From a phage, in the sequence record PZ386977.1: a DNA stretch of 64,000 nucleotides; one strand, written 5' to 3'. Position numbers and translations under genes: made by a program. Below are positions 34,455 through 38,566 of the stretch, piece after piece. How positions within the stretch are numbered: position 1 is the first letter of the stretch; each line of letters starts with the position of its first letter. Below the pieces are notes generated by a model. The model was not told the origin of the DNA and searched no databases. It saw only the letters and a program-made list of their open reading frames with translations.

Positions 34455-34511
34455 CTTATTTCCTTGTTGTTTGACGATAGATTAATAATACCATACTATT
34501 CGTAAAGCATA

Positions 34512-34820
34512 TTACATAAGAAGCAAACGTTCTACCGGAGTACCATCAACCGAAATTACTTTATCAAGGCGGAAAGAACGCCACTGACCTAACTTGGTAT
34601 CGAATGCTCGAACTGATTCACGAGGTTCATAACGAACTTCTGTTGCCGGATTGTTATTTTCATATTTGACTTCAAGTTCATCACGAGAAGCAAACATCGT
34701 GCGAACATCACCATTAGCCTTTTCAAATATAACACAATGAACGCCTACAGACAGAATAGTTTTAATACGTTCACGAAGAACCATAGTTTCTTGTTCAGTT
34801 AAAATCATATTATTCACCAC
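34512..34820 (-). CDS. hypothetical protein (102 aa), positional counterpart of 31.1
   Basis: ORF overlapping the cd stop region. Confidence 0.55.
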   Translation of the reverse strand: MVNNMILTEQETMVLRERIKTILSVGVHCVIFEKANGDVRTMFASRDELEVKYENNNPATEVRYEPRESVRAFDTKLGQWRSFRLDKVISVDGTPVERLLLM

Positions 34821-35391
34821 AAAAGTTTCGGATTTGTTCCCAATTCAGAGAACGAAGATTATTACGAGAGTACTGAATTACTTCAATACCGGCTTGTTTA
34901 AGAATGTCTGCCCAATTTTCAGGAGATCTGTCATATAACTCAGCGTATACAACCTTTTTAATACCTGACTGCGTAATAGCTTTAGTGCAATCAGGACATG
35001 GAGAAAGCGTAGTATATAACGTAGCACCTTCAATAGAATTACCTTTACGAGCTGCAAATAAAATTGCATTCAATTCTGCATGTATTTCGTTATTAGCAGA
35101 CCATGCACTATGAGCAGCCCGATGTTCTTTAGCTAAAACAAAATTATCTACCCGTCCAAATGCTGTAGTGCCTTCTTTATGTCCAGCAACGATGGCTGGG
35201 ATTGGTTTATTCTTCAACCAACCATTTTCAGATGCATGTTCGCAACAGTTAACGCCACCTGCAGGTGAACCGTTATATCCAGTAGAGATAATGCGTCCAT
35301 CTTTTTCAATGACGGCACCAACTTTCCATGAACAACATTTTGATTCTTGAGAAATCAGATATGCAATCTGAAGGTATGTGCTAGCTTTCAT
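34810..35391 (-). CDS. cd: dCMP deaminase
   Basis: 193-aa ORF; zinc-binding motifs HAELNAI and SPCPDC. Confidence 0.93.
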   Translation of the reverse strand: MKASTYLQIAYLISQESKCCSWKVGAVIEKDGRIISTGYNGSPAGGVNCCEHASENGWLKNKPIPAIVAGHKEGTTAFGRVDNFVLAKEHRAAHSAWSANNEIHAELNAILFAARKGNSIEGATLYTTLSPCPDCTKAITQSGIKKVVYAELYDRSPENWADILKQAGIEVIQYSRNNLRSLNWEQIRNFCGE

Positions 35392-36383
35392 TATTGAACC
35401 TTATTAATATAAGTTAACAGCTCTTTAGTTTGTTCCCAACTGATGCACGCATCGGTAACGGAAATGCCATAGGACATATTATCAGAAATTTTTTGATTTC
35501 CTTCATGTAGGAACGATTCTATCATAATTCCTTTGACCAAATCATTAGCTGCTAAATTTTTACCAATACCAATTTGATTGCTATAATGCCCTTCAGCGTT
35601 TGCATGGCTACAGTCAACCATTACATAATGATTCAGACCTACTGCCCTTGCTTTGTTAGAAGCTTCTTGAATATCAGAAGAATGATAGTTCGGGCCGTTG
35701 GTCCCGCCACGCAATACGATATGCGTATTCTGATTACCTTCAGCTTCAACAATGCCTACAGTACCATCGACGTCCATACCCATATACCGATGAGGCCAGG
35801 CGGCACTATACATCGCGTCTGTAGCTACTTTAATAGAACCATTGGTTGCGTTCTTGAAGCCTACGCACATCGGTAGACCTGAAGCAATTTCACGATGTGT
35901 CTGACTTTCAGTCGTACGGGCGCCAATAGCAACCCATGAGAAAATACCAGAAAGATACTTAATCGTGAATGGGTCTAATACTTCAGTTGCTAATGGAAGT
36001 CCCATACGTAGAAGTTTACGACACAATGTTCGTGCAACTATAAGACCGTGGTTCATATCAAAACTTCCGTCAAGATATGGATCATTTACAAGACCTTTCC
36101 AACCTACGGTAGTTCGAGGCTTTTCAAAATAAACGCGCATCACTAACAGAACATTAGGAAGACGAGTTTGAAGTTCAGCCAGACGTTTGCCGTATTCAAC
36201 AGCAGCAATAGGGTCATGAATTGAACAAGGACCTACAACAATAAGTTTGCGTGGGTCTTCACCATTCATAATCGAATTAACTTGTTCGCGATGAGAAGCC
36301 ACTTGTGATGCGTAAGCTTCCGACAAAGGAATAATCTCAGCCAGTTCTTTTGGAGAAATAAGTTTTCCGACGACAGGTAACAT
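35391..36383 (-). CDS. 3-deoxy-D-arabino-heptulosonate-7-phosphate (DAHP) synthase, class I (AroG/AroF/AroH type)
   Basis: 330-aa ORF with motifs GPCSIHD, KPRTTVGWKG, GARTTESQ, LRGG, DCSHAN, ESFLHEGNQ, TDACISW; stop overlaps cd start (TAATG). Confidence 0.9.
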   Translation of the reverse strand: MLPVVGKLISPKELAEIIPLSEAYASQVASHREQVNSIMNGEDPRKLIVVGPCSIHDPIAAVEYGKRLAELQTRLPNVLLVMRVYFEKPRTTVGWKGLVNDPYLDGSFDMNHGLIVARTLCRKLLRMGLPLATEVLDPFTIKYLSGIFSWVAIGARTTESQTHREIASGLPMCVGFKNATNGSIKVATDAMYSAAWPHRYMGMDVDGTVGIVEAEGNQNTHIVLRGGTNGPNYHSSDIQEASNKARAVGLNHYVMVDCSHANAEGHYSNQIGIGKNLAANDLVKGIMIESFLHEGNQKISDNMSYGISVTDACISWEQTKELLTYINKVQ

Positions 36384-36503
36384 AACAATCCTTAGGAGAT
36401 ATAAACAGATTCTGATTCAACAATACCTTTAACCGGATTAGACAGGCTAAGTTGGTAGTGCTCAGATTTATGACCATTCTCGATAGTAATGAGATAACTC
36501 TCA

Positions 36504-36740
36504 TTATAGTGTTCCGTATACTCGAGTTGCTTCAACAAGACCATCACTGCCTAATTTAAGATTAGTAATTTGGTCACCATCTTTAGGATTAACGATTACG
36601 AGAAAAGAACGTGGAGATTCTTGAATAACTCGTAATGTTGCATCTTGGAAACGTTCAGACACTTTATTGATGAGTGCTTGAGCAAATTCTTTTACTTTAA
36701 TCTGAAATTCGTGTACTGTAATTGGGTTTTCACTTAGCAT
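36504..36740 (-). CDS. hypothetical protein (78 aa)
   Basis: ORF with RBS GAGGAAA and early promoter upstream. Confidence 0.55.
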   Translation of the reverse strand: MLSENPITVHEFQIKVKEFAQALINKVSERFQDATLRVIQESPRSFLVIVNPKDGDQITNLKLGSDGLVEATRVYGTL

Positions 36741-36800
36741 TTCTATTTCCTCATTTGTTGGTAGAGTTATAGTATCACAACTCCACCGTGTTGTAAACCA

Positions 36801-37480: not shown

Positions 37481-38566
<1,086 letters not shown>

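Follow-up and report, generated by a model that had tools for sequence, protein, structure and literature searches.

A DAHP synthase gene in the pseT-cd early region of Mosigvirus and related T4-like phages, with a substituted inhibitor pocket that may relieve feedback control

Gene Arrangement between cd and pseT

The window analyzed here is a stretch of phage DNA of 64,000 nucleotides (sequence record PZ386977.1), which belongs to Mosigvirus and is collinear with Mosigvirus Shf125875. Its cd-pseT interval contains, on the minus strand, the gene of a DAHP synthase preceded by a spacer and a homologue of cd.2 (table 1). As the original prediction had indicated for T4, only cd.1-cd.5 lie between cd and pseT in that phage, with no DAHP synthase gene, and the interval of RB69 likewise holds only small ORFs. 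In RB69 the DAHP synthase gene is absent and cd.2 directly adjoins cd; the missing segment, of ~1.1 kb (about 35392..36504), comprises the spacer together with the gene. A small out-of-frame ORF (36392..36547) matching phrog_15876 extends into the spacer with its 3' part. The spacer might tentatively be seen as a partial duplicate of cd.2, given a weak profile match to phrog_1504 (E=1e-5) with no pairwise BLASTP similarity. An imperfect repeat of 19-23 nt is found at both junctions of the insert; it may mark the indel with respect to RB69, but in part it is the generic TAATGA junction, and we place no weight on it.

Table 1. Features of the DAHP synthase locus (positions in the window)
Feature	Position	Strand	Remarks
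dCMP deaminase (cd), 193 aa	34810..35391	-	Start codon shares 1 nt with the stop of the DAHP synthase gene
DAHP synthase gene, type I-alpha, 330 aa	35391..36383	-	ATG start; assigned by profile, structure model and alignment
Spacer, 120 nt, cd.2 to DAHP synthase gene	36384..36503	-	Unannotated in the RefSeq twin
Shine-Dalgarno-like AAGGA	36389..36393	-	5 nt upstream of the start codon of the DAHP synthase gene; read from sequence
cd.2 homologue (DUF7320)	36504..36740	-	Upstream neighbour of the DAHP synthase gene
Early-promoter-like (G)TTTACA-17-TACTAT with TG	36769..36797	-	Between cd.3 and cd.2; consensus match and positional analogy only

The last A of the DAHP synthase stop codon TAA (35393-35391) is the first base of the cd ATG (35391-35389), from which translational coupling to cd had been proposed. 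The 1-nt overlap is indeed present but says nothing about a link with cd, because overlaps of this kind occur at no fewer than 12 gene junctions in the annotation of the window and cd has its own Shine-Dalgarno sequence, AAGG, at 35399-35402, 7 nt upstream. Furthermore, one or two small ORFs lie between the DAHP synthase gene and cd in Winklervirus and Bragavirus. On these observations we reject a special functional coupling of the two genes, and the overlap is ordinary T4-type gene packing.

The promoter-like sequence between cd.3 and cd.2 occupies a position matching that of the annotated T4 early promoter Pe133295. Since a sigma-70-type scan returned 12 sites against 15.2 expected by chance, it is solely through this positional match that the site can be called an early promoter. 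By analogy with T4, it likely gives rise to the transcript of cd.2, of the DAHP synthase gene and of cd, which would probably be transcribed early together. No terminator-like site was detected on the coding strand ahead of cd, nor was a MotA box, indicative of middle promoters, found in a scan of the 120-nt spacer.

Distribution and Age of the Phage Gene

The presence of a DAHP synthase gene in these phages is already known, and the window constitutes one more instance. The gene is found, with its reading frame intact, in ~140 deposited Mosigvirus genomes, usually under the labels DAHP synthase, AroG or aroF and with 99.7% nucleotide identity (Shf125875, PhAPEC2, phiC120, the O157 typing phages and others), while ~70 other phage records annotate it as DAHP synthase. 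The protein family phrog_5045, which is placed in the category of auxiliary metabolic genes, matches the protein over its full length (residues 1-330, E=8.6e-182), which lies in a phage genomic context; this family and the annotated enzymes of Mosigvirus, Kanagawavirus, Marfavirus, Winklervirus and Bragavirus represent the same gene, located at the equivalent site upstream of cd, with no material difference from the one studied here. Given these records, the PHROG family and two papers that mention the gene, one of them on phiC120, the novelty implied by the original prediction does not hold. The gene is thus present and annotated in other phages but not biochemically characterized in the literature that we found, in which a search for functional studies of any phage DAHP synthase (enzymatic, genetic or of expression) retrieved annotation-level mentions only.

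The phage DAHP synthases form one clade in neighbor-joining trees (bootstrap 200/200), and the best identity of the phage protein to any bacterial sequence, among 5.8 billion proteins, is ~54%. The same pseT-cd slot is occupied in all five genera listed above and in a metagenomic T4-like contig, and the cross-genus identity of the DAHP synthase tracks that of the flanking core genes cd and gp31. The composition of the gene matches that of phage genes, with a GC3 of 0.297 versus 0.287 on average for phage ORFs and 0.51-0.57 for the aroF, aroG and aroH genes of E. coli; its codon usage (RSCU) correlates with that of phage genes at 0.88. Within Mosigvirus, dS is only ~0.01 with few changes, and between-genus pairs were used instead for the analysis of selection; they gave a dN/dS of 0.15-0.21, indicating purifying selection (at a dS near saturation). 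Codon usage, monophyly, distance from bacterial sequences and synteny in five genera all agree with the earlier proposal of long residence instead of a recent pickup, and the DAHP synthase is an old phage gene.

A Type I-alpha DAHP Synthase with a Complete Active Site

The product of the gene is a type I-alpha DAHP synthase. The 330-aa ORF matches Pfam PF00793 (E=1.1e-74, 251 bits with a cutoff of 25.5), the NCBIfam aroFGH equivalog TIGR00034 (427 bits, cutoff 173) and the NCBIfam subfamily NF009395 (454, cutoff 343), and its top solved structure by sequence is that of E. coli AroF (6AGM, E=1e-104). All the motifs on which the gene had been recognized as an intact class I enzyme are present in the translation, namely GPCSIHD (residues 51-57), KPRTTVGWKG (88-97), GARTTESQ (154-161), LRGG (224-227), DCSHAN (257-262), ESFLHEGNQ (289-297) and TDACISW (310-316). 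The protein does not pass the models for the AroG (NF006723, 363 with a cutoff of 568) and AroH (NF009396, 386 with a cutoff of 463) isozymes, and for this reason the GenBank labels 'AroG' and 'aroF, Tyr-sensitive' over-specify the gene. An AlphaFold2 model (pLDDT 91.3) folds as a (beta/alpha)8 barrel into which the beta6a/6b hairpin (strands 198-203 and 209-214) is inserted, and in Foldseek comparisons it superimposes on the DAH7PS crystal structures of Neisseria meningitidis, Francisella tularensis and E. coli with a TM of 0.95 and an rmsd of 1.7 A.

Compared with AroF, AroG and AroH of E. coli, to which it is 51%, 47% and 44% identical, respectively, the phage protein shares family and fold, including the beta6a/6b hairpin, as well as identical metal ligands and PEP/E4P residues, and at the position of AroG Ser211 it has the Gly of AroF. 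It differs in being ~20 residues shorter, with a deletion of the N-terminal arm (~11 residues) and shortened loops near the C-terminus, and in that its gene, carried by a lytic phage, has the codon usage of phage genes.

To compare the catalytic and regulatory regions we used an alignment of 25 sequences of the phage clade with their 98 nearest bacterial hits, plus AroF, AroG and AroH from E. coli, a sample narrower than the full diversity of type I-alpha enzymes. The metal ligands Cys53, His260, Glu289 and Asp311 (Cys61, His268, Glu302 and Asp326 in AroG) are the same in every sequence of both groups (25/25 phage, 98/98 bacterial). The ten residues binding PEP and E4P are Arg83, Lys88, Pro89, Arg90, Thr91, Gly154, Ala155, Arg156, Lys177 and Arg225, which correspond to R92, K97-P98-R99-T100, G163-A164-R165, K186 and R234 of AroG and are identical across the phage clade. 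Altogether, these 14 catalytic positions are invariant in both groups with the sole exception of T100, which is Ser in three bacteria; each of the catalytic residues named in the original prediction is thus retained. We infer from this conservation that the phage protein catalyzes the condensation of PEP and E4P to DAHP.

Substitutions in the Inhibitor Pocket and Deletion of the N-terminal Arm

The original description of the enzyme as 'host-type' applies to its catalytic core but not to its regulatory pocket, in which the inhibitor-site residues are replaced. The alignment contains 105 columns that are at least 90% conserved in phages and bacteria alike, and in only six of these does the residue differ between the two groups: P150I, Q151K, D155G, S180P, F209Y and T223A in AroG numbering (I141, K142, G146, P171, Y200 and A214 in the phage protein). 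All six substitutions lie in or beside the pocket for the amino-acid inhibitor, and five of the six positions appear in a list of inhibitor-site or feedback-resistance sites drawn from the literature (hypergeometric P=8e-6). At AroG positions 150, 151, 155, 180 and 209, the phage clade has fixed Ile, Lys, Gly, Pro and Tyr, respectively (24-25 of 25 sequences), whereas the bacterial sequences have Pro150 in 90/98, Gln151 in 98/98, Asp155 in 95/98, Ser180 in 97/98 and Phe209 in 97/98 cases; the canonical pocket formed by these five residues is therefore absent from the phage protein.

The side chains of Gln151 and Ser180 bind the main chain of the inhibitor in AroG and AroF alike, and P150L and S180F are known feedback-resistant variants of AroG (PMC9529685). 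AroF becomes insensitive to Tyr either by substitution of Gln152 or by deletion of Ile11 (PMC5791370). In the phage sequences only 48-52 residues precede the catalytic Cys, compared with a median of 63 and a minimum of 58 in bacteria, and the alignment columns of AroG D6, D7 and L8 are gaps in 25/25 of them; hence the N-terminal extension that makes inhibitor contacts across the dimer (Asp6 and Asp7 in AroG, the region of Ile11 in AroF) is missing. The phage clade is thus naturally substituted at positions altered in the engineered enzymes aroG-fbr (P150L, S180F, D146N) and aroF-fbr (Gln152Ile, delta-Ile11), and has an N-terminal deletion as well. It differs from them in having Ile, Lys and Pro instead of Leu, Ile and Phe, in that its changes are combined and have been fixed by evolution, and in that its resistance is predicted.

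Proposed Function and Alternative Explanations

DAHP synthase is the valve that sets the flow of carbon toward aromatic amino acids, folate, quinones and siderophores. Our preferred interpretation, to which we give a little better than even credence, is that the phage gene encodes a DAHP synthase that is expressed early and escapes inhibition by Phe, Tyr and Trp, an old acquisition inherited with the phage backbone that sustains entry into the shikimate pathway. Its acquisition would date far back, to an ancestor shared by several T4-like genera, and it would have been passed on with the pseT-cd early region. Unlike host AroF, AroG and AroH, its product has lost the canonical determinants for binding Phe, Tyr or Trp: the anchors of the inhibitor main chain, Gln151 and Ser180, by change to Lys and Pro, Pro150, Asp155 and Phe209 by change to Ile, Gly and Tyr, and the N-terminal arm of the partner subunit, which closes the pocket, by deletion. 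With these determinants lost, carbon would keep entering the pathway regardless of the aromatic amino-acid status of the cell, and the phage enzyme probably runs unchecked during infection. Nor would this inflow depend on transcription in the host, which is turned off by the phage. The resulting flow may sustain chorismate-derived products in the infected cell, i.e. aromatic amino acids and possibly precursors of folate or quinones. Insensitivity to feedback, early expression and the downstream product that matters are all elements that we infer. Among the roles suggested earlier for the gene, the sequence evidence now singles out one as favoured, the bypass of host feedback inhibition.

In T4, the early genes cd, td, frd and nrdAB are host-derived and supply precursors for nucleotide metabolism. 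The DAHP synthase resembles these genes, and the auxiliary metabolic genes of cyanophages, in being a host-derived enzyme that a lytic phage encodes in its early region and that supplies precursors after host shut-off; it differs in feeding precursors of amino acids and cofactors, not of nucleotides, and in contributing no more than the gate-keeping reaction of a long pathway of the host. Because the phage encodes just the first of seven steps, any increase in flux would depend on surviving host enzymes, and since RB69, T4 and other phages thrive without the gene, any benefit must be conditional.

Simple loss of a regulatory site does not predict that the new pocket residues should be nearly invariant among phages, and the pocket may therefore still bind something. 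It is conceivable, though we judge it rather unlikely, that the pocket has been rebuilt instead of lost, so that the enzyme would remain allosteric as a virus-specific variant re-specified for another effector, by which the phage would adjust entry into the shikimate pathway to its requirements instead of merely deregulating it; candidates would be a metabolite reflecting the state of infection or an anionic intermediate of the pathway, for instance chorismate or prephenate. The six clade-defining substitutions remain fixed while overall identity among phages drops to 55%, the mean conservation of the remodelled positions (0.91) exceeds that of the whole protein (0.74), the change of Gln to Lys places a positive charge at the site of the inhibitor main chain, and the pocket-forming beta6a/6b hairpin is kept in the AlphaFold2 model. 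However, the residues around the pocket's side-chain end (AroG 212, 214 and 221) vary among phages (conservation 0.44-0.72), the arm that closes the pocket is absent, and structural or interface constraints could explain the conservation equally well.

It is far less probable that the fold has been reused, either to join PEP to another sugar phosphate, in the manner of KDO8P synthase with arabinose-5-phosphate, or in a non-catalytic role. PF00793 spans DAHP and KDO8P synthases, the phiC120 paper names lipopolysaccharide beside aromatic biosynthesis for this domain, and Mosigvirus phages have unusual sugar chemistry on their DNA. Against this, the protein passes the aroFGH equivalog, no model of the KDO8P synthase family KdsA is among its NCBIfam hits at E<=0.001, and the E4P-binding KPRT motif (KPRTT in the phage protein) and the metal-binding Cys are invariant. 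A fully conserved active site speaks against a non-catalytic protein. A link with the arabinosyl-hmC modification of Mosigvirus DNA was set aside, considering that the E4P-specific motifs are kept and that RB69, of the same genus, lacks the gene.

Finally, recent capture of a host aro gene as a 'moron' with ordinary AroF-like properties and no adaptive function, which could be suggested by AroF being the best-scoring solved structure, by the Gly shared with AroF and by the 'aroF, Tyr-sensitive' label in several GenBank records, is effectively refuted by the low identity to AroF and to any bacterial protein, a GC3 far from the 0.51 of aroF and a phage-like codon usage, the monophyly, five-genus synteny and co-divergence with cd of the phage clade, its dN/dS, and the replacement of the Tyr-binding Gln152 and Ser181 of AroF.

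Implications for Phage Biology

A DAHP synthase that has been kept for so long with a rewritten pocket suggests that there are hosts or environments in which the supply of aromatic compounds or chorismate can be limiting for the production of phage. To our knowledge, such a limitation is unstudied in T-even phages, the known metabolic genes of which are almost all related to nucleotides. The phage enzyme could serve metabolic engineering as a ready-made feedback-resistant DAHP synthase. If instead the specificity of the pocket has changed, the enzyme would couple shikimate-pathway entry to a metabolite relevant to infection, and the protein would offer a natural template for designer allostery in strains producing aromatic compounds. 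Mosigvirus phages are popular candidates for therapy and biocontrol, and a metabolic gene present in nearly all of them deserves functional attention.

Identity and Distribution of the Phage DAHP Synthase

The 330-aa minus-strand ORF was originally predicted to encode a class I DAHP synthase, hereafter abbreviated as DAHPS, and this observation is upheld in every particular. Each of the listed motifs is present in the translation, and the protein matches DAHP_synth_1 of Pfam (PF00793, E=1.1e-74), passes the NCBIfam equivalog TIGR00034 for aroFGH (427 bits vs. a cutoff of 173) and has Escherichia coli AroF (6AGM) as its nearest solved structure by sequence (E=1e-104, residues 8-327). AlphaFold2, given an alignment of 38 sequences, yields a high-confidence model (pLDDT 91.3, pTM 0.91), and the predicted fold closely resembles type I-alpha DAH7PS crystals from Neisseria, Francisella, and E. 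coli (TM 0.95, rmsd 1.7 Å). Since the protein fails both the AroG-specific and the AroH-specific NCBIfam models, the GenBank labels "AroG" and "aroF, Tyr-sensitive" overclaim relative to the sequence.

Coordinates of features at the DAHPS locus and of related sites in the window
Feature	Coordinates	Strand	Remarks
Middle-promoter pattern	34485-34509		just upstream of gene 31
cd (dCMP deaminase)	34810..35391		193 aa
Direct repeat, second copy	35376-35394	-	end of segment absent from RB69
DAHPS stop codon	35393-35391		TAA
DAHPS ORF	35391..36383	-	330 aa
Gap between cd.2 and DAHPS	within 36384-36547	-	120 nt
Direct repeat, first copy	36489-36507	-	end of segment absent from RB69
Early-promoter-like GTTTACA-17-TACTAT	36797-36769		between cd.3 and cd.2
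Middle-promoter pattern	37763-37787		inside pseT

Megablast searches with the ORF retrieved 146 phage records, 140 of which are full-length at ≥95% identity (best 99.7-99.8%). The near-identical copies, including those of Shigella phage Shf125875 (with which the window is collinear from coordinate 97938 onward), PhAPEC2, phiC120, ATK47, and O157 typing phages, belong to Mosigvirus (Straboviridae, Tevenvirinae). By tblastn the count is 213 phage records, with amino acid identities of ~76% in Enterobacter and Edwardsiella phages, 66-68% in Klebsiella and Serratia phages and EcS1, and 58% in Proteus phages. In most megablast records the gene is already labeled, for example as phospho-2-dehydro-3-deoxyheptonate aldolase, DAHP synthase I alpha, AroG or "aroF, Tyr-sensitive", and PHROGs catalogues it as phrog_5045 (E=9e-182) in the category "moron, auxiliary metabolic gene and host takeover". 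Two papers refer to it at the annotation level: the domain is listed in the phiC120 genome paper (PMC8022965), and a 2025 Klebsiella phage paper terms the Kanagawavirus copy an auxiliary metabolic gene and goes no further than a hypothesis (PMC11845039). The existence of the gene is thus already known, and the novelty implied by the original prediction does not hold: annotations of this gene exist in well over a hundred genomes, and it is already listed among phage auxiliary metabolic genes. Full-text literature searches turned up no biochemical or genetic work on a phage DAHPS copy, and the recent Mosigvirus characterization papers that we checked do not mention it.

A search of 5.8 billion proteins revealed a sharp step in identity to the window protein, above which lie proteins of 319-343 aa with 55-98% identity and below which lie bacterial proteins of at least 341 aa from assorted phyla, with identity of ~54% or less. 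Neighbor joining of 123 sequences groups the 25 of phage type into a single clade (200/200 bootstrap), whose named members are proteins of Edwardsiella, Erwinia, Klebsiella, Escherichia, Shigella, and Providencia phages. Two of its other members lie on T4-like contigs: the divergent P0020, on a metagenomic contig with the order pseT, small ORF, DAHPS and cd, and P0022, in a different gene context. (A 98%-identical protein cluster of 164 member sequences, P0001, is named "3-deoxy-7-phosphoheptulonate synthase [Escherichia coli]" by NCBI; its 170,875-bp contig is a phage genome that was deposited under the name of the host.) The aroF_1 and aroF_2 genes on Acinetobacter phage MD-2021a contigs (tblastn matches H96/H97; 13 and 24 kb) have 45-48% identity to the window protein, outside the range of the T4-like clade; the contigs may be bacterial and wrongly binned with phages, or the genes may have been acquired independently. 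Distant DAHP synthases are also found in Aeromonas phage HJ05 (37%) and in human-gut "Bacteriophage sp." contigs (~35%).

Catalytic and Regulatory Sites

The phage clade shows no variation at any of the four metal ligands or the ten PEP/E4P-binding residues. We then compared columns that are at least 90% conserved within both the phage and the bacterial groups, using no list of sites. Only six of the 105 doubly conserved columns carry different residues in the two groups, namely (AroG numbering) P150→I, Q151→K, D155→G, S180→P, F209→Y, and T223→A. Five of these lie on the published list of inhibitor-pocket and feedback-resistance positions (hypergeometric P=8e-6), and the sixth, T223→A, lies two residues past the feedback-resistance position V221 in the same hairpin. 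AroG variants P150L and S180F are feedback-resistant, the side chains of Gln151/Gln152 and Ser180/Ser181 grip the main chain of Phe in AroG (1KFL) and of Tyr in AroF (6AGM), and the salt bridge of Asp155 steadies the inhibitor pocket (PMC9529685). Moreover, ~11 N-terminal residues are absent from every phage sequence, leaving 48-52 residues ahead of the catalytic Cys vs. a bacterial minimum of 58; the deletion takes out the equivalents of AroG Asp6/Asp7 and adjoins the region of AroF Ile11. Deletion of Ile11 or substitution of Gln152 renders AroF insensitive to Tyr (PMC5791370). Unlike E. coli AroF and AroG, which keep the inhibitor-anchoring residues, the whole phage clade combines, as judged from its sequences, an intact active site with a remodeled feedback pocket and the loss of the N-terminal arm. 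The phage protein is very likely an active DAHP synthase, and probably one that aromatic amino acids do not inhibit.

The most atypical clade member is P0022 (contigs L015/L016), which keeps Pro at AroG positions 150 and 182 and may represent an intermediate state of pocket remodeling. Its neighborhood differs: a 394-aa protein with a faint Zeta_toxin match lies upstream and cd is not adjacent, although a T4 Y05Q-family gene is present on the contig.

A less likely reading is that the allosteric pocket has been re-specified rather than disabled. In its favor, 24-25 of the 25 phage sequences share each of the six substitutions, and conservation at the pocket positions exceeds that of the protein as a whole (0.91 vs. 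0.74), which mere loss of function does not predict; against it, the side-chain end of the pocket differs among phages and its N-terminal lid is gone. A different substrate or a noncatalytic role is unlikely, given the invariant KPRT motif, the TIGR00034 match and the absence of KdsA among the NCBIfam matches.

Genomic Position and Inheritance

The interval between pseT and cd holds the DAHPS gene in five genera: directly upstream of cd in Mosigvirus, Kanagawavirus, and Marfavirus, separated from it by one small ORF in Winklervirus and by two in Bragavirus. RB69, the type species of the window's genus, lacks the gene and has cd.2 directly abutting cd; a few other Mosigvirus records lack it too, and in T4, cd.1 occupies the slot. 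Proteus phage PM2 (Bragavirus) has a homing endonuclease gene between pseT and DAHPS (record L008:1606-2322), which marks the interval as an insertion hot spot. The ~1.1-kb segment absent from RB69 is bounded by an imperfect direct repeat (ATAATGAGAGTTATCTCAT vs. ATAATGAAAGCTAGCACAT, 13/19 bases), the second copy of which matches the RB69 junction; it may be an insertion/deletion footprint or merely a generic TAATGA junction. Within the gap between cd.2 and DAHPS, which RefSeq NC_025437 leaves unannotated, lies the 3' portion of a small ORF in a different frame from cd.2. This ORF matches phrog_15876, a family of 41 aa (E=5e-31); a second, weak match (E=1e-5) is to phrog_1504, the cd.2 family, in its C-terminal half. 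Pairwise BLASTP against the window's own cd.2 gave no match; the ORF may be what remains of a gene resembling cd.2 or cd.1. The annotated cd of RB69 (record L009:7743-8252) encodes 169 aa ending in ILKPSWY, vs. 193 aa in the window and T4 proteins; close to the 3' end of this gene the RB69 record appears to be frameshifted or truncated. Several GenBank records misname cd as "ribD riboflavin biosynthesis protein" or "tRNA-specific adenosine deaminase", while cd.2 is called "olfactory receptor-like protein" in HX01 and pseT "AAA family ATPase" in Entb_45.

The original prediction also proposed translational coupling with cd through TAATG. The overlap is real, the last base of the DAHPS stop codon being the first of the cd ATG, but it does not amount to a special pairing: one-base overlaps occur at 12 or more junctions in the window's annotated twin, cd has its own AAGG seven nucleotides upstream, and in other genera the two genes simply abut, stand 4 nt apart or have ORFs between them. 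The adjacency looks like an inherited position, not a functional pairing.

The suggestion that the gene is phage-like in base composition, and long-resident rather than recently picked up, agrees with our results. Its GC3 is 0.297, compared with a mean of 0.287 (sd 0.054) for 50 phage ORFs of the window and 0.51-0.57 for E. coli aroF/G/H, and its codon usage (RSCU) correlates at 0.88 with phage genes and 0.27 with E. coli aro genes. Identity to the window copy declines across genera in the same order as for the flanking core genes cd and gp31 (DAHPS and cd, respectively: Kanagawavirus, 76% and 83-84%; Marfavirus, 66% and 79%; Winklervirus, 67% and 71%; Bragavirus, 58% and 65%), and dN/dS between genera is 0.15-0.21. 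Together, composition, phylogeny, synteny, co-divergence and dN/dS indicate a single old acquisition followed by vertical descent under purifying selection, with occasional loss. A recent host-derived moron is effectively excluded by these results.

Expression and Proposed Function

The gene lies within an all-minus-strand early region, and the early-promoter-like sequence occupies the same place as the T4 early promoter Pe133295; no terminator-like site was seen on the coding strand ahead of cd. Over the whole window there are 13 occurrences of the T4 middle-promoter pattern TGCTTNA-N11-13-TANNNT (12 on the minus strand) vs. 3.8 expected, and none of 100 shuffles reached 13.

The activity, feedback insensitivity, timing and benefit of the phage enzyme are inferred. 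Its catalytic core is untouched while the anchors for the aromatic amino acid are replaced at several positions, each of which is enough on its own to make the E. coli enzymes feedback-resistant. The simplest reading, which we consider more likely than not, is a DAHPS that stays on in the presence of Phe, Tyr, and Trp, made early and keeping the shikimate flow. PEP and E4P would then keep entering the shikimate pathway, held open even where host feedback and host transcription would close it. The product that matters may be aromatic amino acids to build phage protein, pABA/folate, given the heavy one-carbon demand of td and hydroxymethylase, or quinones.

The presence of this gene in T4-like phages is already known and would not surprise a phage genomicist, yet the gene merits functional interest. 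What our analysis adds is a specific and testable prediction at the level of function, drawn from the combination of an intact catalytic site with a rewritten pocket and a missing N-terminal arm.
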